Virus record (IMG/VR): IMGVR_UViG_3300025410_000014
Source: an uncultured virus (IMG/VR IMGVR_UViG_3300025410_000014)
Lineage: Duplodnaviria > Heunggongvirae > Uroviricota > Caudoviricetes
Strand: one strand, 5' to 3'
DNA: 29,112 bases
Position numbers and translations under genes: made by a program. Below are positions 11,976 to 28,107 of this stretch, piece after piece (position 1 is the first letter of the stretch; every line of letters starts with the position of its first letter). The notes beneath the pieces were generated by a model that saw only the letters and a program-made list of their open reading frames with translations, had not been told where the DNA came from and did not search any database.

Positions 11976-12032
11976 TCAGTTGCACTCTACTTCCTAGAAG
12001 TACTTAGCCCCCGCTGGTCGGGGGCTTTTTTT
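11976..12032 (+). ncRNA. candidate small RNA (~55 nt)
   Basis: Lies between the predicted promoter and the intrinsic terminator; no ORF; internal hairpin TACTTC-CTA-GAAGTA (11988-12002). Boundaries are inferred. Confidence 0.4.
12006..12032 (+). terminator. rho-independent terminator between the convergent gene blocks
   Basis: AGCCCCCG-CTGGT-CGGGGGCT hairpin followed by a T-run. Confidence 0.92.
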
Positions 12033-15000
12033 CAATCTTCAGAAAACTTCTCTCTGATTTCGGGCAACAACTTCTTGTTGTAAACAATTCCGTCAATCAT
12101 GTTTTTCTCATTGGCTTTGCGTGCAGTCTCAGATTTCTGCAAAGTAGCTGATGTAATACGCTCACCCGGATGTGCTTCATTGAATGAAGTGATCTTGTCT
12201 TGGGTACTACTCATCAAATCTGTATCACCAGCCGTTCTTGCTAAGTCGTAGAGATTGAGCAACTTAGTCTTGCGTGCCAATACTTCTTTTTGGAACTGAG
12301 TACGTGCGCTAGACATTTCGTACATATTAGATAGATCAGCAGGTGCAAAGCCCGCTATCTGCATCAGGCCATTGTATGTATTGATGTCTGATTCAATTGG
12401 GTCACCCTTGAGAGTCTGCGCACCCTCAGTCATGTACCTAAACCCTTTCATACCATTACGCACAAAGCTAGGAGCTAAGGCTTCAAACGCACGTTCGGTA
12501 TGTCCTTCAGCCATCATCTTGGCAGCGTTTTCTGCGTTGACTGCATACGATGCGGCAGGGCCAAGAGCTTGTTGAATGATGGTTAATGTTAGGCCATGAT
12601 CTGCTACGCTACGTGGGTCATCACGATAGATTAGATCGGTTGCAAGACCAACACGATTAGATATCTCTAAATTAGTTAGATAGTTAACTGGGCCTTTGTA
12701 TGCAAACTCACCAAAGAAATCACGCATCTCTTCATTGAAGTCAAAAGGTTCATCATCGTCACCGAACAATGCGTTGATAATGCTGGCTAGAGTTGAAGCT
12801 GCTCCGTAAAAAGGTAGTCCTTTAGCGCCAGCAAATGCCATACCCATACCATACGTACCAATAAGTTGACGCATTGCAGCTTGGCGTACTACCGGTGTCT
12901 CACCTTTAAATGCTTGATGGAATGCACGACCAATAACGAATGCACTATTCCAAGCAAATGATTTAAATGTAAATGCTACCCTGCCTAGTGGGTGTTGCAT
13001 CCACTTGGGCGCAGTGACGGACATACCTGATGTATGTGCATCTTTAACAGTGTCGATGGCTTCACGGATAGCTTGTGCTTCGCTCTTACCTTTTTGTTTG
13101 GCTAAGTCATAAGCAGCCACGGCGGTAACGGCACGATTGTATTTTTCACTTGCGGCAAATGGAATACTCAAAGCACCCAACATCTTTGCTTTTAACCCAG
13201 TAAATTCACTTGTGCTTTGTCTGCGACCTTCCAATACTTCACGTGCCATCGTATGCTCAAGCTGACCATGATCCATCAGAGCTTCGTACAAATTCTTATA
13301 GCGTGCGTTTTTGTCTAGCCCGTTGATAGCAATTTTGCTTGCATTCATCATGGCGCTTGTAGCACCTGCAAACCCATACTTGCCACTCAATATAGGCCAT
13401 ACCATCATGGGTAATGAGGTCACGTTAACCAGCGCAGATGAGGCGTTACCTGCAATGTATTCCATATAGCTTAGTGTGGTTGCCCCACTTACTAAATCAC
13501 TATATGTTGGGTTGTGCATAAACCCACGTTGATCATAAACATTTTGTGCTGCGGCATATACGGCAGGGGTATTGGTATTGCTAGCTTCTGCGCCAATAGC
13601 ATCAATGGCTTTATCTATCTCTGGAGAATATGCAGAGTCAGAAAGCTTTCTTGCCCACTTGATCATGGTGTCGCCATAGCCACGCACAATGTCACGCTCC
13701 ATGCCACGCACGTTCTCGGACTTCATGAACTGTTTGACTAAAGACTGTGCGGGGAACAACGCTAAGTACGATTGGTACACATTGTTGAGCTGCTCTTGAC
13801 TTGCACCATTTTTTTGTAGCCCGTGCATGATCTGACCCAAGAACGATGTTGGTGGGACTAGACCTTGTTGATACTGTGCGTTTTGTAGATTTTGATAGGA
13901 CTTATGCTGTGCGCCTTTTAGCACATCCTTAATGAACTTATCACGTTCACGAATAGACTCAAACGCTGAAGCAGCACGTTCGCCAGTAGTAGGATCTGCA
14001 TACTCTACCCAAAAATCACCACGGCGCAGGAATGGTATGTACCCAGGCACACGGCGTTTAGTTTGGAACTCAGCTTTGATGCGAGCAGCAAGCGATGGCG
14101 TAGCGTTGGCTAATAGAATTTTTTCATACTCATTGATTGAGTCTTCATATGAATTGCGTATAGTCTTATAAACGTCTTGAACTTCTTTAGGTAATGCATG
14201 GTATATGGTTCTTAGTCTTGCAAACTCTGATGCGTTTTCTTTTGTTGTTGGGAATTTAGGGTTAAGGATGTCCACTTCTGCCAAGCGAGCATCGTAAGCC
14301 ATGTCATTCATGCGCTCCATTGCTGCCTTATGTTTCTTAAAGACATCAGTGAAGTGCTTGTAGTTTTTGTTGATTTCCTTGATGCGTCTCTCTTGCGTAC
14401 CATTACGTTTCTCAAGTGCATCTATCAATCGTTGGATTGAAGGAAGTTGTTTCTTGTAAATAGTGTTTAAGTGATCAAGGCGCAACAGCCCAAATGCTAA
14501 CTTAGTTGTGGATGGCCCTGCATACATAGGGCTATTTTTATCCGCAATGTTTGAGAATGTGTTTCTAGCTTTATCAACTGCTTCTCGTGTAAGGTTGGGC
14601 ATGTTTTTGCCAATTTCGCCTACTGTGCGAAAAGCATCATTAACTGCTTGTCCCGTGCTCATAAACATCTTTTCAGATGGCGTTGCTTCCACGTCCCGTG
14701 AAACATCTATAGCATCATTAATAAATTTCAAACCCGCATTATAAGCAGATTGACCTTTACGGAATCCAAAGAACTCAGCAATAGACTGCATGATTCTTTC
14801 AAACAAGTTGCCGCTCTTAGGGGCTTTGATTGTTTTAAGAACTGCTTGGAAGTTGGGGTTACCTACTAACTCAGAAGCAAACTCCTGCAAGTCCTGCGCA
14901 CCATAGGCAGCGCCTAATTGATTTTGTATTTGGTCAAAAAACTTTAAGAATTGTTTAGTAAGCGGATGGTTACGGTTATTAAGTACGTGCGATATTGCAG

Positions 15001-18000
15001 CGTGTGTAATCTCATGAATTGCAGTATGCTCATTTAGCCCATGTTCGGGGTCAAGCGTAATTGTGTTGGTAGCAGGATCATAAGAACCAGCTTTGCCAAA
15101 ACCAACTTCACCAATAACAATCTTGGGATTTAACCCAAGTGCTTTAAACCTACGCAATACTTGCTTGATCTCATTGTTATCAATGGTCTTGATTAAATGG
15201 TCAAGAATATTATTGACATTGCCTTTTTTAACTAGATCAATACCCGCAGCATCTAAATTCTTACCTTTATAAGCAGGGCCATAGAATGTATCTTTGCCCA
15301 AAATTATTTGCATTTCGTTTTTAAACTGCCTCTTAAAAGCTTCAGGCAATTTGTCCATTGCATAATTAATAGCTTCTAAGATTTGACCTTTGTTGAGCAG
15401 CGCTATAAATCCTGGCGTATCTTTCTTGGTCAGGTAGTTATTTTTTATGTGCGTTAATGCTTCTTTAAACCTATCGGCAGAATTAAACCCAGGCCCTTTA
15501 CGATTAGTTTCTTTTGGTTCGGGTGGTATAGAATCTTCGTAAGCTTTTTTACGTGCAGCAGCTTCAGCAACTTTTTGTTGCACTGTGCTTTCAAATTCTT
15601 GATTGCCTAGCTTAGTTACGTTGCTGAGAAACTCTGCTCTTTTACTAGGAGATAAAGTATCTAGATGCGCCAAAATCTGTGCACCTTCAGGGCTACCAGT
15701 TGTTATCTCATGGTGCAATCTTTCAAGCAACTGTTTGTTTTTGATCTTTTGCGCTGCATCTTCTTTAGTGGATATTTCTTTATCCAACTGCAATAGATGG
15801 CGATACTCGTTAATTAGAGCAGGTAACCGCAATACTTTATGCGTAGCCGTGCCACGATGCGAACCAATCTCTAAAAACTTGCTATCAATACCTTTTTCTT
15901 GTGCAGCTTCATGGATGCGTGAAGTTAGAATGCTATCTACACGCTTATCGTTTTCTTCAATAAAGTCTTCTTGTTCTTTATTGGCTTCGACCGCACCCTT
16001 CTTTGCTTTTTCTTTTTTGCTTTTAGTGGGTTGTTTTTCTACTGGAGCGGGCTGTTCAACTTTTCCTGCATGTTTTTCTTTTAATTTTGTTAAGGTATAG
16101 TGTTTACCTTCAATCTTATTTTCTCTTTCAGATAAACTAAGTATTTTTCGTTTAACAGCTTCTTCGTTGGTAGTTTCTTTAGCACCTTTAGGAGTGTATG
16201 CAGAAGGAGGATTAATTCCATCGTCAACAACCATTTTTCCATCTGGCAGACGAGTAACTTTTACGTCATTGACTATTGGATTTGGTGTACCGTCAGTATT
16301 TGTATAATGTTGAGTTAATCTGTAATGCGTACCCTCAACATTAGCAGCTTCAGCTACAGTTTTTAAATAGCCTTCATGACCGCCTAGTGTTTCTAGTACC
16401 TCATGAACATTTTCTTGTTTTTCTACTGGAGCGGGCTTTCGGACTTCTCCTGCATTAACGCTTGGAGCATTCTGTTCAGCAGGAACATTTCCATCTCGTT
16501 CAGTTGGTTCAACTGTTCCGGCGGCTCCTCCAGCGGGTTCGCTAACCACCTCATTGCTTGTTCCAGTTGTGGTTGTGTCAGGTCTTGTAGCATCTTCAAC
16601 TCCTTGGAATTCTGGGCGACCTAAGAATGCTTCTACATTCTCACGTGCTTTTGTACTTGTTGTCTTTTCTGCATATGCTTCAAGCACACGTTTAACTTCA
16701 GCGGCATCGGCCGGGTTACTGATGTCCTTACCATGTATCAACTTGTTTCTAATAAACGTGGCGGTACGTCCTATGCCCAGGCCCTTAAACGTATTGTCGT
16801 CTATGGTTGTGGGAAGTTGTTGTGGTGTTAGCTGTGTAGGCTTCTGGACTACGGTAGGCTCTGAAGCTACTGCGGTAGTTTGATCCACAGGTGCAGCAGC
16901 TTGTTGTTCTACAGGTGCAGCTTGTGGCGGCGCAGGTTGTTCTTGCACTGGCGCAGTAGGGGCGGCTTGTTGCGGTGCAACTGTTGGAGCAGCAGGTGCA
17001 ACTTGTTGTTGTGTGGGCAGTACAGGCTTGGGGCCACGCTTGGCTGCTAAATTCTCATTCTCAGCTCTTTGCTGTGCAATAGTTTGTGCCAAAGGTGATG
17101 GCTGTCTAGCCAATGACAACAAGTCAATCTTGGTTGGTGCAATCTCAGCAATAGCGGCTTTAAGTTTTGCAGCGGCTTCTTTAGTTGCAGCAGCTTGGCG
17201 TTGTTGTTCTAAGCGCTCACGATTAGCCGCAGCTTTGTCAGCTTTAGCCACAGTCATTTCAGCTTGCTTGGTGGGTGCGCCCTGCTCGTCAAACAAACTA
17301 CCTTGCACGCCTTTGGGTTCTTTTGGCTCTACAACTTTAGGTGGTTTTGCAAACTGTCCTTCTGGCAACAAAGTTGTGTATGGCCCCATCTCCATACCAG
17401 GCAACTGCATCTGTTGTTGCTCATTGTTAAACTGGTCTATGTTTGCGCTTTGACGATTTGCTTCCGCAGTTAATTGACGGCCTGCCCGTTTTTGCAAAGC
17501 TTGCTCGTATTGCTGGGCACGCTCTCTACCTGCACGCCCACGCTCAATTGCCCCAGTAGTTGCGCCAAACGCACCACCACCTACTGCACCACGGACACTA
17601 GACTCCATGATGCGGTTCCACTCAGGACTACCAAATATCTGAGGATTTTTACCTACAAAGTTTTCAGCAGCAATGCTAATGGCTTCTTGCATACCTTCGG
17701 TAATGCCTTCTTCCCCCGCCGCCGCAAGCATGTTGGATGCAACAGAACGTAGCAATCCTTTGTCCATGCCAGACTTTTCCAATACCTTTTCTACTATGCC
17801 CATCTTCATTGGGCCAGTAAGGTTCTTCATTAGATGTGCAGGTAGCACAGAATCTAGTGCAGCAGCGCCAGCACCAAACAAAGCAGCGGCCCCAGGAGCT
17901 AGTTCACCTGTTTTGTCATAGATGTTTTGGAATACTTCAGGAGCGTTCTGGGCATATGAACCTAGAAAGATACCTGCGTTTTGTCCACGTGCCGCATACT

Positions 18001-18535
18001 CTGCACCTTTAGTAGCAGCCACATGAGCTAATTCAGCAGGTGTAGCACCTGACTCAATAAGAGGCATAGCCGCACGACCAGCCGCAGCAACACCAAGACG
18101 GCGACCAACTGCCGCCCCAATACCCCCAGGTATCAAAGATGTTGCAATGTTAGGCACTTGCTCGGCGACATTCTCAAGCACAAACTTAGGTATGTCACTA
18201 ATACCCTTAACATCTTTTAAACTGCCGTACTGAGGCGAGTAGTATTTGTTTATCTCATTTTGCGTATCTTGCGCTTCTTGCATTTGTTGCTTGGCATAGT
18301 CATTAAAGCCCAATGCACTTGCACCCATTGCAGGAATAACATCAGTCAGAGTAGACCCCAACTGTTTAGCGCCACGCATAACGCCACGCTTTAATACTTC
18401 GCCAGTAGTGAACTCACCTTTAGGAAGTTCAAAATTATATTTTTTAGATAGAGCGTCTAATTGATCGCTAAGTTGATCCTGAGTTAGGTTGTCGTCAAAC
18501 CTAACTTGCCCAATTTTTGGTAGATCAAGTATCAT
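12032..18535 (-). CDS. giant internal virion/ejection protein, polyvalent-protein type, with zincin-like metallopeptidase motif
   Basis: 2167 aa. Gly/Ala-rich N-terminal third, disordered P/Q/A linker, GSYDPATNTITL...IHEITH...QEFASE metallopeptidase-like segment, helical C-terminal region. Last gene of the virion block. Confidence 0.75.
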   Translation of the reverse strand: MILDLPKIGQVRFDDNLTQDQLSDQLDALSKKYNFELPKGEFTTGEVLKRGVMRGAKQLGSTLTDVIPAMGASALGFNDYAKQQMQEAQDTQNEINKYYSPQYGSLKDVKGISDIPKFVLENVAEQVPNIATSLIPGGIGAAVGRRLGVAAAGRAAMPLIESGATPAELAHVAATKGAEYAARGQNAGIFLGSYAQNAPEVFQNIYDKTGELAPGAAALFGAGAAALDSVLPAHLMKNLTGPMKMGIVEKVLEKSGMDKGLLRSVASNMLAAAGEEGITEGMQEAISIAAENFVGKNPQIFGSPEWNRIMESSVRGAVGGGAFGATTGAIERGRAGRERAQQYEQALQKRAGRQLTAEANRQSANIDQFNNEQQQMQLPGMEMGPYTTLLPEGQFAKPPKVVEPKEPKGVQGSLFDEQGAPTKQAEMTVAKADKAAANRERLEQQRQAAATKEAAAKLKAAIAEIAPTKIDLLSLARQPSPLAQTIAQQRAENENLAAKRGPKPVLPTQQQVAPAAPTVAPQQAAPTAPVQEQPAPPQAAPVEQQAAAPVDQTTAVASEPTVVQKPTQLTPQQLPTTIDDNTFKGLGIGRTATFIRNKLIHGKDISNPADAAEVKRVLEAYAEKTTSTKARENVEAFLGRPEFQGVEDATRPDTTTTGTSNEVVSEPAGGAAGTVEPTERDGNVPAEQNAPSVNAGEVRKPAPVEKQENVHEVLETLGGHEGYLKTVAEAANVEGTHYRLTQHYTNTDGTPNPIVNDVKVTRLPDGKMVVDDGINPPSAYTPKGAKETTNEEAVKRKILSLSERENKIEGKHYTLTKLKEKHAGKVEQPAPVEKQPTKSKKEKAKKGAVEANKEQEDFIEENDKRVDSILTSRIHEAAQEKGIDSKFLEIGSHRGTATHKVLRLPALINEYRHLLQLDKEISTKEDAAQKIKNKQLLERLHHEITTGSPEGAQILAHLDTLSPSKRAEFLSNVTKLGNQEFESTVQQKVAEAAARKKAYEDSIPPEPKETNRKGPGFNSADRFKEALTHIKNNYLTKKDTPGFIALLNKGQILEAINYAMDKLPEAFKRQFKNEMQIILGKDTFYGPAYKGKNLDAAGIDLVKKGNVNNILDHLIKTIDNNEIKQVLRRFKALGLNPKIVIGEVGFGKAGSYDPATNTITLDPEHGLNEHTAIHEITHAAISHVLNNRNHPLTKQFLKFFDQIQNQLGAAYGAQDLQEFASELVGNPNFQAVLKTIKAPKSGNLFERIMQSIAEFFGFRKGQSAYNAGLKFINDAIDVSRDVEATPSEKMFMSTGQAVNDAFRTVGEIGKNMPNLTREAVDKARNTFSNIADKNSPMYAGPSTTKLAFGLLRLDHLNTIYKKQLPSIQRLIDALEKRNGTQERRIKEINKNYKHFTDVFKKHKAAMERMNDMAYDARLAEVDILNPKFPTTKENASEFARLRTIYHALPKEVQDVYKTIRNSYEDSINEYEKILLANATPSLAARIKAEFQTKRRVPGYIPFLRRGDFWVEYADPTTGERAASAFESIRERDKFIKDVLKGAQHKSYQNLQNAQYQQGLVPPTSFLGQIMHGLQKNGASQEQLNNVYQSYLALFPAQSLVKQFMKSENVRGMERDIVRGYGDTMIKWARKLSDSAYSPEIDKAIDAIGAEASNTNTPAVYAAAQNVYDQRGFMHNPTYSDLVSGATTLSYMEYIAGNASSALVNVTSLPMMVWPILSGKYGFAGATSAMMNASKIAINGLDKNARYKNLYEALMDHGQLEHTMAREVLEGRRQSTSEFTGLKAKMLGALSIPFAASEKYNRAVTAVAAYDLAKQKGKSEAQAIREAIDTVKDAHTSGMSVTAPKWMQHPLGRVAFTFKSFAWNSAFVIGRAFHQAFKGETPVVRQAAMRQLIGTYGMGMAFAGAKGLPFYGAASTLASIINALFGDDDEPFDFNEEMRDFFGEFAYKGPVNYLTNLEISNRVGLATDLIYRDDPRSVADHGLTLTIIQQALGPAASYAVNAENAAKMMAEGHTERAFEALAPSFVRNGMKGFRYMTEGAQTLKGDPIESDINTYNGLMQIAGFAPADLSNMYEMSSARTQFQKEVLARKTKLLNLYDLARTAGDTDLMSSTQDKITSFNEAHPGERITSATLQKSETARKANEKNMIDGIVYNKKLLPEIREKFSED
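16031..16455. repeat. direct repeat pair (23 bp exact, extending to 36/41) spaced 384 bp apart
   Basis: TTGTTTTTCTACTGGAGCGGGCT at 16031-16053 and 16415-16437; protein AGEVRKPAPVEKQ vs AGKVEQPAPVEKQ. Confidence 0.92.
16423..16593 (-). CDS. nested (+1 frame) 56-aa helical protein MLQDLTQPQLEQAMRWLANPLEEPPEQLNQLNEMEMFLLNRMLQALMQEKSESPLQ
   Basis: AAGGAG (16605-16600), 6-nt spacer, ATG 16593; open to TAG 16423. The host frame here is low-complexity. Confidence 0.65.
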   Translation of the reverse strand: MLQDLTQPQLEQAMRWLANPLEEPPEQLNQLNEMEMFLLNRMLQALMQEKSESPLQ

Positions 18536-18537
18536 TT

Positions 18538-20463
18538 TTATTGCATTAAATCATTAAAATGAGGAACTGAAGAATCACTATCGTCATAATTTAAGTTGTT
18601 TGTGGCATATGTTCTTTGTGCTGCTGCATGTACCCCAGCCAATTTAGGATTAGATCTCCAATTTTCTCCACCTTGGCGTTTAAGATCTTTTATTAAAGCC
18701 GTTTCTTCTGGGCTACCTACAAAAGATTGCATACCTTTTTGGAAAGCAGCATTATGTTTTATTTTATTTGCTTCCATTTGGTTCTGAACTGTTTGCCCTT
18801 TTAGTATAGCTTGCATGTTATGATTTCTTTCATTTTCTGCAAGAACTAATCGGTTGTATTCATTTCTGTCACCACGAGCTAAAGCTGCTTGTTTCATTTG
18901 CTCAGTATGCATCTTATTGTATAAGTCTGCACGGGTAAGACCAAGCTTACCAGACAATATAGCATTCTCTTCAGCACCACGTTGTCTATTAGCATTAGCC
19001 ATATAGGACACGCCTTGGCTTGCACCTTGACCAATATTAGCCGCAGCATATGGAGATGTGCCACCCATCATACCAAGACCTGCTTGTAGAAGTGCCATGT
19101 ACTTGTCGTTTTGATAGTTCTTCTCAACACCTTCTTGGCGCTGCTTTAGATAGTCTGCATACTGTTTAACGTAGTCATCATCAGGACTAACTTCCATGTT
19201 AGCGCCAGGTGGGTTATTTTGAATTGGCCCAAATCCTTGATCTTCTGCTTCGGTTGTTGCATCATAATTTGGAGTGCCCATTTGCGGATTAGCAGCTTGA
19301 GAATCAGCAGCAGGGTTATACCCAGGGCTTTCAGGCATTCCCGCTGGGGCAGTATTTGCAACTGGTGCAACTGGTTTAGCGGGAACTGCTCCAGCTTTTG
19401 CTCCTTGAGCCGCAATATGTGGATTGCCAATATAGGGTTTAGATATGTCTACGTTAGCTGGGTAGCCACCATTATCTGCGGGGGGTGCAGGATAAGGAGG
19501 AATAAAAAAGTTACTTAGTCGGTCAAGGAATCCGCCTTTATCAAAATGCACTTCACCACCAGCTTTACCTGCGGGTATGCCTTTAATATAGTCTTTGGTT
19601 TCTTTGGGTAGCTTGGACATGTCTGCGCCAGAAGCTAACCACTTATCTGTGTTGCCAGGCCCCCAGTTGTAAGCAATTGCTGCCAACTCATTGTTACCAT
19701 AACGGTTATGCAATGCGCCCAAATACTCACGCCCAACACGTGCAAACTCTTCGGGAGAATTACTGCGTGCGGGTTCTACACCAAACCCAGGACTTTTTAC
19801 TGTACCAGGCATGACTTGCATTTCTCCCATTGCTCCTTTTTCTGAAGTCAATAGATTGCCGTTCTTGTCGTAACGCTGCCCACGACTTTCCTTATAAAGC
19901 ACATGGTGCAACAAAGCATCATGCTGCTCTGGAGGTGTCTTGTTAATATCTTCTTTAAGCGCATGGTGTGCATTTTTTGCAGCAACACCTGCCATACCCG
20001 CTAGACTTTCGATACCTTCTTCGTCTTCGGGTTCTTCTTCAGCTTCCATTTGAGGAGCTTCTTGTTCCTGAGCAGGTGCACTAAGTTTTTGGAAAAGCAT
20101 ACGCTCTTCCTTGTTCATTCCAGAATCAGAACTATCATCGTCTTCTTCATCGTCATCAGCCTCACCACCATCAGCAAACGCAATAATGCCACCACCTGCG
20201 CCAGTCGCAACAGGTAAGTTACTTGGTAGTGCAGGTATGCCCGCAGGTTGAGCCGCTTCAGCCAAAATGCCTTGCGCAACTGTAGGAGGGTTAGGATTAG
20301 CGCCAGCAGTCTGCGTTGCCTGCATTTGTTTCTGCTGCTGCAATTTATCTTTAATTAGCGGTATGCCAATATACGCAGGTACAGACCCATCTTGCACACC
20401 TTTTTGCAATTCTTGGATTGAAAAAGCTTCAGGTTTATAAAGTAATTTTTGTACTATAGACAT
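18538..20463 (-). CDS. internal virion protein with soluble lytic transglycosylase (SLT) domain
   Basis: Catalytic KESRG, GAMGEMQVMPGT, AAIAYNWGPG, ETKDYI; flanked by acidic and P/A-rich disordered regions. Confidence 0.88.
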   Translation of the reverse strand: MSIVQKLLYKPEAFSIQELQKGVQDGSVPAYIGIPLIKDKLQQQKQMQATQTAGANPNPPTVAQGILAEAAQPAGIPALPSNLPVATGAGGGIIAFADGGEADDDEEDDDSSDSGMNKEERMLFQKLSAPAQEQEAPQMEAEEEPEDEEGIESLAGMAGVAAKNAHHALKEDINKTPPEQHDALLHHVLYKESRGQRYDKNGNLLTSEKGAMGEMQVMPGTVKSPGFGVEPARSNSPEEFARVGREYLGALHNRYGNNELAAIAYNWGPGNTDKWLASGADMSKLPKETKDYIKGIPAGKAGGEVHFDKGGFLDRLSNFFIPPYPAPPADNGGYPANVDISKPYIGNPHIAAQGAKAGAVPAKPVAPVANTAPAGMPESPGYNPAADSQAANPQMGTPNYDATTEAEDQGFGPIQNNPPGANMEVSPDDDYVKQYADYLKQRQEGVEKNYQNDKYMALLQAGLGMMGGTSPYAAANIGQGASQGVSYMANANRQRGAEENAILSGKLGLTRADLYNKMHTEQMKQAALARGDRNEYNRLVLAENERNHNMQAILKGQTVQNQMEANKIKHNAAFQKGMQSFVGSPEETALIKDLKRQGGENWRSNPKLAGVHAAAQRTYATNNLNYDDSDSSVPHFNDLMQ

Positions 20464-26442: not shown

Positions 26443-27039
26443 TTAACCGCCTAAAACGGAAAGGGCGTGTTGGGTTAATTTTATACGTTCTTCAAGACCA
26501 AATGTACCACCATTTATGCGTTTTGTTAAGCCCTCCCAGTTCTGCGCTTCAGCCAGATCGTTGCATCCATGAGTCTTCCAGAACCACCCAGCAGACAAAG
26601 CAGCATACATTGGGGTCGCAACAAGTTGCGGTTCTTTGACCATATCCCTCTGGACTGACTGCCCAAAGTGGTAATAGTTATCGTGTCCAGTCAACTGAAT
26701 ACAGCCCCGACCATGAAACCGCCAACCATCTCCTGATTTTTCATCACGGTTTCCCATTCGATTGGCGTAAATTCTGTTGGCAATCTTCTCGGGCTGGTGG
26801 GCGTAAAGGGCAAACTCATTGGGTTGAAACTTGTGTCCAAAGAGCTTTTGTAAGGTTTCGGCTCGATAGTTGAGGTTTTCTTCCAATGTTTTGAAACGGT
26901 TGCACTCGTGGCTGCACTGTCCGATAAAAGCTGCCTGCTTCTTGACATCGTTCATCCCAAACGTAGTAAAAGTTGTAGTCAATGGCTCTGACCATTCAGC
27001 ACCTATCCCGAGCTGATTGAGCTTCTCAGGGCTTAACAT
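26443..27039 (-). CDS. endolysin, glycoside hydrolase family 19
   Basis: FIGQCSHEC...LEENLNY, GDGWRFHGRGCIQLTG, SAGWFW, TKRINGGTFGLEER. Confidence 0.92.
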   Translation of the reverse strand: MLSPEKLNQLGIGAEWSEPLTTTFTTFGMNDVKKQAAFIGQCSHECNRFKTLEENLNYRAETLQKLFGHKFQPNEFALYAHQPEKIANRIYANRMGNRDEKSGDGWRFHGRGCIQLTGHDNYYHFGQSVQRDMVKEPQLVATPMYAALSAGWFWKTHGCNDLAEAQNWEGLTKRINGGTFGLEERIKLTQHALSVLGG

Positions 27040-27493
27040 TAACCATCTCCCTTACTTTGTTGTAGGTGTCGATACAGGCGTTGAGCTGGGTGATGGCGAT
27101 GTCCCCGTCTGCTGCGATACTTGCAAGAGCCTTAATAGTCTCTCGCTCAGATTCGCTTGCATCGGTTGAATCTCCTCTGGGAGAGGTGGCATCTGTGGTG
27201 GCTTGAACGGGACAACTGGAGGGGAGGCGCAACTCGCCAGAGTCAATCCTAGAATTAATACTAGACTGCTTTGTTTTAACATCATTTCTCGCCTTTACAA
27301 GTGCAGTGGTTACGCCTGTTAACTTCTTGTTCAGTTCTGCTTCTTTTGCCCGAGCTTCGTCATTAAGTCGGATAATTTCTGCTTGATCTTCTGCAACACG
27401 TTGCTCATAGCCTTGATGATGTCCATAAAAGTACACTCCTAAAATAGCACAAATTGCGCCAATGATGAACCATGGGTTGAGAAAACTAAACAT
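27026..27493 (-). CDS. i-spanin (Rz-like)
   Basis: N-terminal TM helix, periplasmic coiled coil, GELRL motif, C-terminal QLNACIDTY; adjacent to the endolysin; contains a nested lipoprotein gene. Confidence 0.85.
   Translation of the reverse strand: MFSFLNPWFIIGAICAILGVYFYGHHQGYEQRVAEDQAEIIRLNDEARAKEAELNKKLTGVTTALVKARNDVKTKQSSINSRIDSGELRLPSSCPVQATTDATSPRGDSTDASESERETIKALASIAADGDIAITQLNACIDTYNKVREMVNVKP
27052..27285 (-). CDS. o-spanin (Rz1-like lipoprotein), fully embedded in the +1 frame of the i-spanin
   Basis: Signal peptide with lipobox LASC; Pro-rich mature part; architecture as lambda Rz/Rz1. Confidence 0.85.
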   Translation of the reverse strand: MMLKQSSLVLILGLTLASCASPPVVPFKPPQMPPLPEEIQPMQANLSERLLRLLQVSQQTGTSPSPSSTPVSTPTTK

Positions 27494-27953
27494 TTACACT
27501 TGCCCTTGCATTTGCCATGCGCTCTCGCTCTTCCTCATGCTCTAAGCTCGGTGGAGTTGTGGGCGGAGGAGGAGGTGTCCAAGCTTGGGTAGGATCAATG
27601 CTGAATCCTGAAGTGGAGTTGTTGCCACTTTGAAATTGCATTGGGTTTCCATACCCCATTTGCCCCATCATGGGCTGACCCATGCAAGGATTAAAAGGCA
27701 TCGGAGGAGGGGGTGGAGGCACGCTAGACTTGCCTGTGAGCACCAAACTGACCACGGTGAATATCTGCGCCATAGCCATAGAAAGAATGGCCAAGATCGC
27801 CTTATCAGCAGGCGCTTCGGTAAAAAGTGGCTGTTCAATGAACACAATGCTGTATGAGAACAGCACTGTTACTAGGACAAGGATAAAGCAAAACGTCTTT
27901 AGGATAAACGCCTTGGTCTCGATGTCAACTTGTTCAGGGGTTTTGTGCGCCAT
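27486..27953 (-). CDS. two-TM membrane protein with Pro-rich C-terminal tail, holin candidate
   Basis: Two hydrophobic helices; lysis context. Start re-called to about 27953 (uncertain) because the upstream part of the track ORF overlaps the lipoprotein gene. Confidence 0.65.
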   Translation of the reverse strand: MAHKTPEQVDIETKAFILKTFCFILVLVTVLFSYSIVFIEQPLFTEAPADKAILAILSMAMAQIFTVVSLVLTGKSSVPPPPPPMPFNPCMGQPMMGQMGYGNPMQFQSGNNSTSGFSIDPTQAWTPPPPPTTPPSLEHEEERERMANARASVNV

Positions 27954-28107
27954 TTTTCGGTTTATTAAAAAATTCGGGACAATTTTGAGAGGCAACACAG
28001 AGAGGCGGTTTGCAGTCTTCCGCATCCCAGTTCTTAGGGTCTTGGCAATGGTAGCGATATCTGTCGTCACAAGACACCAACAAAAGAGTTAATAGCAACC
28101 ACTTCAT
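27934..28107 (-). CDS. Cys-rich lipoprotein (57 aa, MKWLLLTLLLVSCDDRYRYHCQDPKNWDAEDCKPPLCVASQNCPEFFNKPKNGAQNP)
   Basis: Not in the ORF track. ATGA overlap with the upstream gene, AAGGA just upstream, lipobox LVSC, four further Cys. Confidence 0.8.
   Translation of the reverse strand: MKWLLLTLLLVSCDDRYRYHCQDPKNWDAEDCKPPLCVASQNCPEFFNKPKNGAQNP

Follow-up and report, generated by a model that had tools for sequence, protein, structure and literature searches.

A probable gene for a small acidic protein overprinted in the +1 frame of a giant virion-protein gene of uncultured tailed phages

Nested genes read out of frame within larger genes have been described in phages of very different kinds: Rz1 of lambda is read in the +1 frame relative to Rz, and in phiX174 gene E lies within D and gene K within A/C. 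Here we analyse a candidate of this type, a 56-codon open reading frame (ORF) nested in the +1 frame of a 2167-aa ORF (12032..18535, minus strand). Both lie in a 29,112-nucleotide stretch of DNA from an uncultured virus of the Caudoviricetes (IMG/VR record IMGVR_UViG_3300025410_000014), the whole of which is called the window below. The larger ORF, hereafter the host gene, encodes a large polyvalent DarB-like virion/ejection protein. Comparison with relatives makes it highly probable that the nested ORF truly codes for a protein and is overprinted on this giant gene in the +1 frame.

The arrangement resembles that of the lambda two-component spanin, in which a small gene is contained entirely in a larger one, has a start of its own, and both products are functional (PMC5295617, PMC6139136). 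However, Rz1 is an outer-membrane lipoprotein encoded in a lysis cassette, and both of its overlapping frames encode constrained partners, whereas here the host is a virion/ejection polyvalent protein whose frame serves as a linker without constraint. The two systems are unrelated in sequence, and the nested protein of the window has neither Cys nor a lipobox. Overprinting in small viruses, such as that of tombusvirus p19 in p22, offers a second parallel, in that same-strand coding frames are under unequal purifying selection and yield a small accessory product with its own fold (PMC8227390, PMC3494269 and PMC11044054). Such overprints belong to very small genomes in which size is under pressure, whereas here the overlap lies inside a 6.5-kb gene of a double-stranded DNA (dsDNA) phage of about 60-75 kb; furthermore, unlike in the small-virus overprints, it is the nested frame that is more constrained, and the larger gene evolves neutrally where the two overlap. 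The host protein itself belongs with polyvalent, DarB-like and PLxRFG virion proteins, and its C-terminal 870 residues are 22-28% identical to such proteins in 36 cultured-phage records; no nested ORF was detected in these records by tblastn with three family members. In our literature search, nested genes were not reported for polyvalent, DarB-like or PLxRFG proteins. We class the nested ORF as a new gene family that exemplifies a phenomenon already known.

The nested coding sequence occupies 16423..16593 on the minus strand and consists of 56 codons followed by a TAG stop codon (16425-16423). It overlaps host residues 648-705, and its product, MLQDL...SPLQ, is acidic and predicted to form three helices. 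The ATG start codon (16591..16593) straddles the host codons GAT-GCT. It is preceded by a Shine-Dalgarno (SD) sequence, AAGGAG (16600..16605, minus strand), which is located 6 nt 5' of the ATG, is separated from it by the spacer TTGAAG and overwrites the host codons CAA-GGA-G (Gln-Gly). A program-made ORF list starts the same frame at a TTG abutting the SD sequence (16423..16599, 58 aa); the proper spacing belongs to the ATG at 16593. The first-pass annotation, made from the letters of the window alone, had pointed to AAGGAG-N6-ATG at 16593 as the opening of a 56-aa +1 ORF, and its coordinates were exact and its peptide identical to our translation. Its reading of the host frame over the overlap (EDATRPDTTTTGTSNEVVSEPAGGAAG..., residues 648-705) was equally accurate; this segment is rich in Thr, Gly, Ala, Pro and Glu. 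When both strands of the window are counted, AAGGAG is followed by an ATG 4-9 nt downstream at only six sites: the starts of three ORFs of at least 100 aa (3154, 7339 and 23101), the nested start, 149 and 3636.

Because an ORF of this length is expected by chance in a gene of this kind (see below), the case for a nested gene rests on comparison with relatives, and the signal that exceeds chance is a comparative one. When the 56-aa peptide was searched with phmmer in a set of 1.84 billion representative proteins, 38 matches were obtained at E<=1e-3, two of them at E<=1e-10. One match, P0032 (273 aa, repetitive), looks spurious. The remaining matches align end to end, are mostly 57-58 aa long, start with MLQ[DE]L[TS] and share a stop after ...SPL[QH]. 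Several homologues carry N-terminal extensions rich in Arg, Leu, Ser, Pro and Lys, as would be seen if an ATG farther upstream had been called and the sequence read out of frame.

We scanned IMG/VR with patterns built from seven family members (427 stretches matched, 298 confirmed as relatives, best 80 kept) and also scanned metagenomes (319 matched, 119 relatives, 80 kept); the two sets overlap in part, and duplicates were removed at the nucleotide level. In all 80 viral loci the ORF is 56-58 codons long, with the start (ATG in 70, GTG in 10) and the stop at aligned positions, and lies in the +1 position inside a host frame that is open for 596-2049 codons, a range limited by the locus ends. 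The metagenome loci agree: 79 of 80 are nested, one is cut by the contig end, and all 79 evaluable loci have the start and the stop at aligned positions. The ORF, start, stop and SD sequence are kept together in 80/80 viral and 79/79 evaluable metagenome loci, all of them found by means of the peptide. No free-standing copy appeared among the loci kept from these scans. A scan of 185,579 prokaryote genomes with two peptide patterns matched 69 stretches, none of which was a relative, so that no cellular, prophage or free-standing copy was found within the reach of these patterns. Nor did tblastn of the window peptide and two further family members against cultured phages give anything significant (E=7 for one, no match for the others), and a scan with an alignment of a divergent subfamily returned only 9 contigs, all found already. 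The gene is present in a single copy per genome in 5/5 near-complete carrier records. As judged from these sequences, it is a single-copy, always nested gene that appears to have a long history in a large uncultured phage clade whose genomes measure about 60-75 kb.

The translation signals are conserved at synonymous sites of the host gene. Upstream of the overlap the host gene encodes a small conserved domain (16595..16813, minus strand; residues 575-647), which ends in ...RPEFQG just before the nested start and the last codons of which form the SD sequence of the nested gene. Amino-acid diversity in this domain is 0.30-0.37, and its tblastn matches in relatives are 46-85% identical. GGAG is found at positions -10..-7 in 50 of 68 distinct relatives, and the host codon under the SD sequence is GGA in 54, GAG in 11 (with GGAG one base upstream), GGG in 2 and GGT in 1. 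Thus, the Gly codon under the SD sequence is GGA in 54/57 cases, compared to 8.7% GGA among the Gly codons elsewhere in the host genes. The first two bases of the start codon belong to a host codon that reads AAT in 41, GAT in 19, AGT in 7 and GGT in 1; its wobble base is thus always T, against a background use of T-ending codons of 33% for AAT and 49% for GAT. The nested stop varies in identity (TAG, TAA or TGA) and is fixed in position. A stop codon directly precedes the ATG in 7/80 viral loci; elsewhere the nested frame is open upstream for up to 162 codons. A conserved start and a conserved ribosome-binding site of its own, both expected of an overprinted gene, are therefore found.

Selection in the two frames was compared over the overlap. 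Among 68 distinct sequences, mean pairwise amino-acid identity is 0.595 in the nested frame, 0.330 in the host frame and 0.376 in the third frame; stops interrupt none of the 68 sequences in the nested frame, none in the host frame and 66 in the third frame. Nucleotide diversity at nested codon positions 1, 2 and 3 is 0.387, 0.202 and 0.489, respectively, and, as the host wobble position corresponds to nested position 2, the host wobble is the least variable. From 160 distinct sequences pooled from all scans we took 58 phylogenetically independent pairs of 80-99.5% nucleotide identity, each sequence being used once, for an OLGenie-style count. Calculated from simple uncorrected p-distances, dN/dS was 0.132 for the nested frame (bootstrap 95% confidence interval 0.095-0.174) and 1.24 for the host frame (0.92-1.69). 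In these 58 pairs, 423 differences left the nested protein unchanged and altered the host protein, compared to 59 differences of the reverse kind, and binned counts over all pairs agree with the pair-based dN/dS.

The same contrast is seen along the host gene. In 19 host genes chosen among carriers and aligned by host protein, 30-codon windows spanning 1500 codons all show a wobble diversity of 0.47-0.69, with a drop to 0.25-0.28 only at residues 646-705, where host amino-acid diversity is high (0.63-0.67). The host frame is nevertheless kept open over this segment: none of the 160 distinct sequences has a host-frame stop, and a third-position T is absent from all 2701 nested codons in which it would create one. 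With amino-acid-matched T usage, 0.60 host-frame stops are expected per sequence, and the probability of staying open is about 0.55 per sequence. Therefore, both frames are maintained, although all that is preserved of the host frame is its openness as a spacer. The nested frame being under purifying selection, together with a dip in host synonymous variation confined to the overlap, is the signature of an overprinted gene, and the comparison shows that selection acts on the small protein, the host frame being an unconstrained spacer that is kept open. The first-pass annotation had called the ORF a real nested gene and had proposed that orthologues be inspected for +1-frame stops or a missing ribosome-binding site and ATG, and for stronger constraint in the +1 frame than in frame 0; the conservation in the peptide-found loci and the dN/dS values come out strongly in favour of its call, as does the following sample.

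Loci were also chosen by the host N-terminal domain alone (406 stretches, 269 relatives, 80 kept, of which 7 end before the region, leaving 73 evaluable). The nested ORF is full in 61 of these, partial in 1 and absent in 11, and every match lies in the +1 position inside the host ORF. A first profile detected 58 ORFs and the partial one in L093, and a broader profile added three. Divergent subfamilies keep the same end position and have ATG, GTG or TTG near the aligned start. In a tree of the N-terminal domain, carriers span the deepest split, and the non-carriers form three clusters inside carrier clades, which fits an old gene with repeated loss; it should be noted that this is a quick maximum-likelihood tree of 65 distinct rows with a midpoint root only, so that the root is not established. 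For example, in the locus L152, which does not carry the gene, the host domain ends in RPEFQ-V and runs on into a Lys/Asn/Glu/Val repeat; GGAG is missing, and numerous stops interrupt the +1 frame. A different situation is found in L003/L093 (one IMG/VR contig, L093:6416-6553; 90% N-terminal identity to the window), where the SD sequence, the ATG and the first ~20 nested codons are kept, 60 bases being identical to the window, whereas the remainder has given way to another host segment (LPENQREAVAQRLGITRPEF...), so that the ORF is only 45 aa long and its tail is unrelated. These loci indicate that the nested gene was lost or replaced on several occasions, which makes it accessory rather than essential.

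The window as a whole is phage DNA, with PHROGs matches to DNA polymerase, helicase, primase, endolysin, an Rz-like spanin, virion structural proteins and a DNA ejection protein. In the host gene (12032..18535, minus strand) a HEITH zincin motif is located at residue 1174 (15002-15016), Pfam LPD39 matches residues 1347-1481 (4.9e-13, 49.6 bits against a cut-off of 27), and phrog_10089 (DarB-like antirestriction) matches residues 1485-2164 (4.7e-81). The protein therefore has both an LPD-type domain and the DarB-like/PLxRFG C-terminal region that together characterise large polyvalent proteins. Matches to the host protein in cultured phages (36 records, 21-28% identity) cover only residues 1299 onward, so that the N-terminal half, including the overlap, has no cultured relative; blastn of the region against cultured phages gave no match. 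The host-frame linker over the overlap (16426..16594, minus strand; residues 648-705) is free of stops and without amino-acid constraint.

The gene preceding the host gene encodes a transglycosylase-bearing virion protein. The ATG of the giant gene (18535) has no SD-like sequence upstream and directly follows this virion-protein ORF (18538..20463), which suggests that its start is translationally coupled to the preceding ORF. The internal SD sequence of the nested gene (AAGGAG) is far stronger than that of the host gene itself. The nested gene lies in the late virion/ejection module and shares its mRNA with the giant gene; neither a sigma-70-like promoter nor a terminator was found within 16200-17000. 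A lysis cassette is located at 26443-28070 (minus strand) and comprises an endolysin (26443-27039), an Rz-like spanin (27026-27493) and an overlapping 194-aa ORF (27486-28070) for which there was no PHROG match. An embedded Rz1-like outer-membrane spanin was considered for the nested ORF and rejected: the window peptide has no Cys, only 8 Cys occur in 96 family members, the host gene is DarB-like, and the Rz-like spanin of the window lies elsewhere, in the cassette just described.

Downstream of the nested start, the giant gene of the window carries 384 extra bases (16031-16435, minus strand; host residues ~706-833) compared to its nearest relatives (L001/L002, L178 and L180-L183), which are 98-99% identical up to 16417. 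The insert is flanked by a 21-base direct repeat at 16435 and 16051, the first copy of which overlaps the last codons and the stop of the nested gene. It encodes a stretch of ~128-145 aa (ENVHEVLETLGG...) that has no tblastn match in 80 related loci and is shared only with L179 (100% identical over 801 bases). A second +1-frame ATG ORF, of 50 aa (16090-16242, minus strand), is located inside the insert.

For the nested protein, AlphaFold2 with a 96-sequence alignment gave a mean predicted local distance difference test score (pLDDT) of 84 and a predicted template modelling score (pTM) of 0.60, with helices at residues 7-18, 26-29 and 33-52. The helix-PP turn-helix pattern suggested at first was thus roughly right. 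The family is acidic (median net charge -5, range -8 to -1; median pI 4.55), as is the window protein (-6, pI 4.14). Conserved positions are mostly core hydrophobics, together with Glu11, Glu35, Glu49-Lys50 and loop prolines. Searches for known relatives gave little: no Pfam family matched the window peptide, and among the 96 members at most three per family did so at E<=1, as scattered weak hits; PHROGs gave no match; the best PDB profile match had E 0.23; the best Foldseek match in PDB (AcrIE3) had E 5.7 and was not taken as evidence; VIA-align gave generic three-helix matches (best Z 4.7); BFVD gave weak generic three-helix matches (best E 1.0); and the ESM Atlas gave no usable match.

Several points weigh against reading the nested ORF as a gene. 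The host gene was shuffled 2000 times by synonymous codons and 2000 times by codon order; 82% and 79% of these shuffles, respectively, yielded an ATG ORF of 56 aa or more in an alternative frame of the same strand. The homologue clusters have 1-3 members each and are named 'hypothetical protein' or nothing, the family being almost never called by gene callers. Loci found by the peptide are a biased sample, and the host-N-terminus sample and the close-pair analysis reduce this bias and do not remove it; moreover, the dN/dS values carry no correction for multiple hits. The ORF is absent in 11/73 host-gene relatives, with no relocated copy in 5 'absent' records, one of which is rated 100% complete (positive control 5/5), and it is truncated in L003/L093. 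The clade with the nested gene has no cultured member in the phage collection (blastn, tblastn), and no family, fold or neighbour gives a functional clue. A chance open frame with a chance SD-ATG in a long gene, without a product, would account for the shuffling result, for several other +1 ORFs of 42-50 aa in the window, and for the fact that the exact peptide of the window is not in a collection of 15 billion proteins. Nonetheless, we consider it extremely improbable: the ORF, start, stop and SD sequence are kept across hundreds of diverged contigs with a nested dN/dS of 0.13, the codon-position pattern follows the nested frame, the host wobble dips only at the overlap, and 160 distinct nucleotide sequences exclude assembly copies of one sequence. 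Conservation through a nucleic-acid element in the linker (RNA structure, packaging site or recombination site), to which the 60 identical bases shared by the window and L003 at the ORF start, beside a recombination breakpoint, could be attributed, deserves no more credence. Variation follows a three-base period in the nested frame, amino acids are exchanged conservatively, and insertions and deletions, found in the loop alone, comprise whole codons; RNAalifold on 24 sequences predicted 0 pairs, the local fold (z -1.66) is not significant, and there is no sigma-70-like promoter or terminator in the surrounding region.

The two remaining explanations accept a peptide product and differ in what it is. 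A programmed frameshift would add the 56-aa helical tail to a truncated isoform of ~647 aa, without a free small protein. SD-like sequences can stimulate frameshifting in bacteria (prfB, dnaX), and in many loci the nested frame is open upstream. Against this, ATG or GTG stands at the first conserved codon in 80/80 loci with GGAG at initiation spacing, a stop directly before the ATG closes the frame in the loci mentioned above, the six bases between the SD sequence and the ATG vary freely with no conserved slippery motif seen, and conservation begins exactly at Met1. An extension by frameshifting, which should show a slippery site, no start of its own and a frame open from the shift site, does not describe this locus, and we regard it as very unlikely. 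The first-pass annotation had further suggested a dedicated chaperone, inhibitor or immunity partner of the metallopeptidase-containing half of the giant protein. The permanent cis linkage to the giant protein and co-expression with it would be in keeping with such a role, as would the properties of the product, since many protein inhibitors are small and acidic. However, presence of the gene does not track the HExxH domain: six loci of the 'absent' clade (L151-153, L158, L159 and L164) keep this domain at 43-46% identity, and twelve full-length carriers have no tblastn match to it. Furthermore, 30 of 73 peptide-found loci with at least 2200 bases of upstream flank (including L013-L020, L026, L029 and L032-L034) have no detectable member of the N-terminal domain family of the window upstream, although the host frame is open for ~1800-2040 codons in these 30 loci. 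The nested module thus sits in giant genes of different or very diverged N-terminal architectures and, with both the HExxH domain and the N-terminal family undetectable in some carriers, no single host domain is its constant companion. The comparisons did not bear out the proposed partnership, which is unlikely, and a specific inhibitor of the metallopeptidase domain is at least as unlikely.

Under the favoured interpretation, that of an overprinted gene, ribosomes would start independently at the conserved SD-AUG inside the late mRNA of the giant gene, as the conserved signals suggest, and the product would be a strongly acidic protein of 56-58 aa with a predicted small three-helix fold. As to its function, our tentative best guess is a late-made, trans-acting accessory factor of the virion-internal/ejection module, e.g., a helper in assembly or loading, or a co-delivered effector; next, and less probable, is a role directed at the host, in anti-defence or takeover. 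A more far-reaching and still more doubtful interpretation is that, in evolutionary terms, the small gene dominates this site and the giant gene reads across it as a spacer, and that the product of the small gene is a cis-encoded partner controlling the loading or activation of the ejected giant protein. Under this interpretation, the small gene might have been free-standing formerly and swallowed when two virion-protein genes fused, or it might have been born de novo in a neutral linker and have become a long-lived, near-core gene of the uncultured clade.

Out-of-frame nested genes are textbook material in tiny viruses, whereas few have been documented in large dsDNA phages and gene callers discard them. 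The present case adds an orphan family of acidic proteins, confidently predicted to form three helices, to the late ejection-module set of an uncultured phage clade, and it indicates that real genes can lie concealed in the 'disordered linkers' of giant polyvalent virion proteins. It is also a clear-cut example from nature of a nested gene that bears the constraint while the larger gene evolves neutrally over the overlap. If the small gene is indeed the dominant unit at its site, there would be a hidden class of genes in the 'linker' regions of phages, systematically missed by annotation pipelines.

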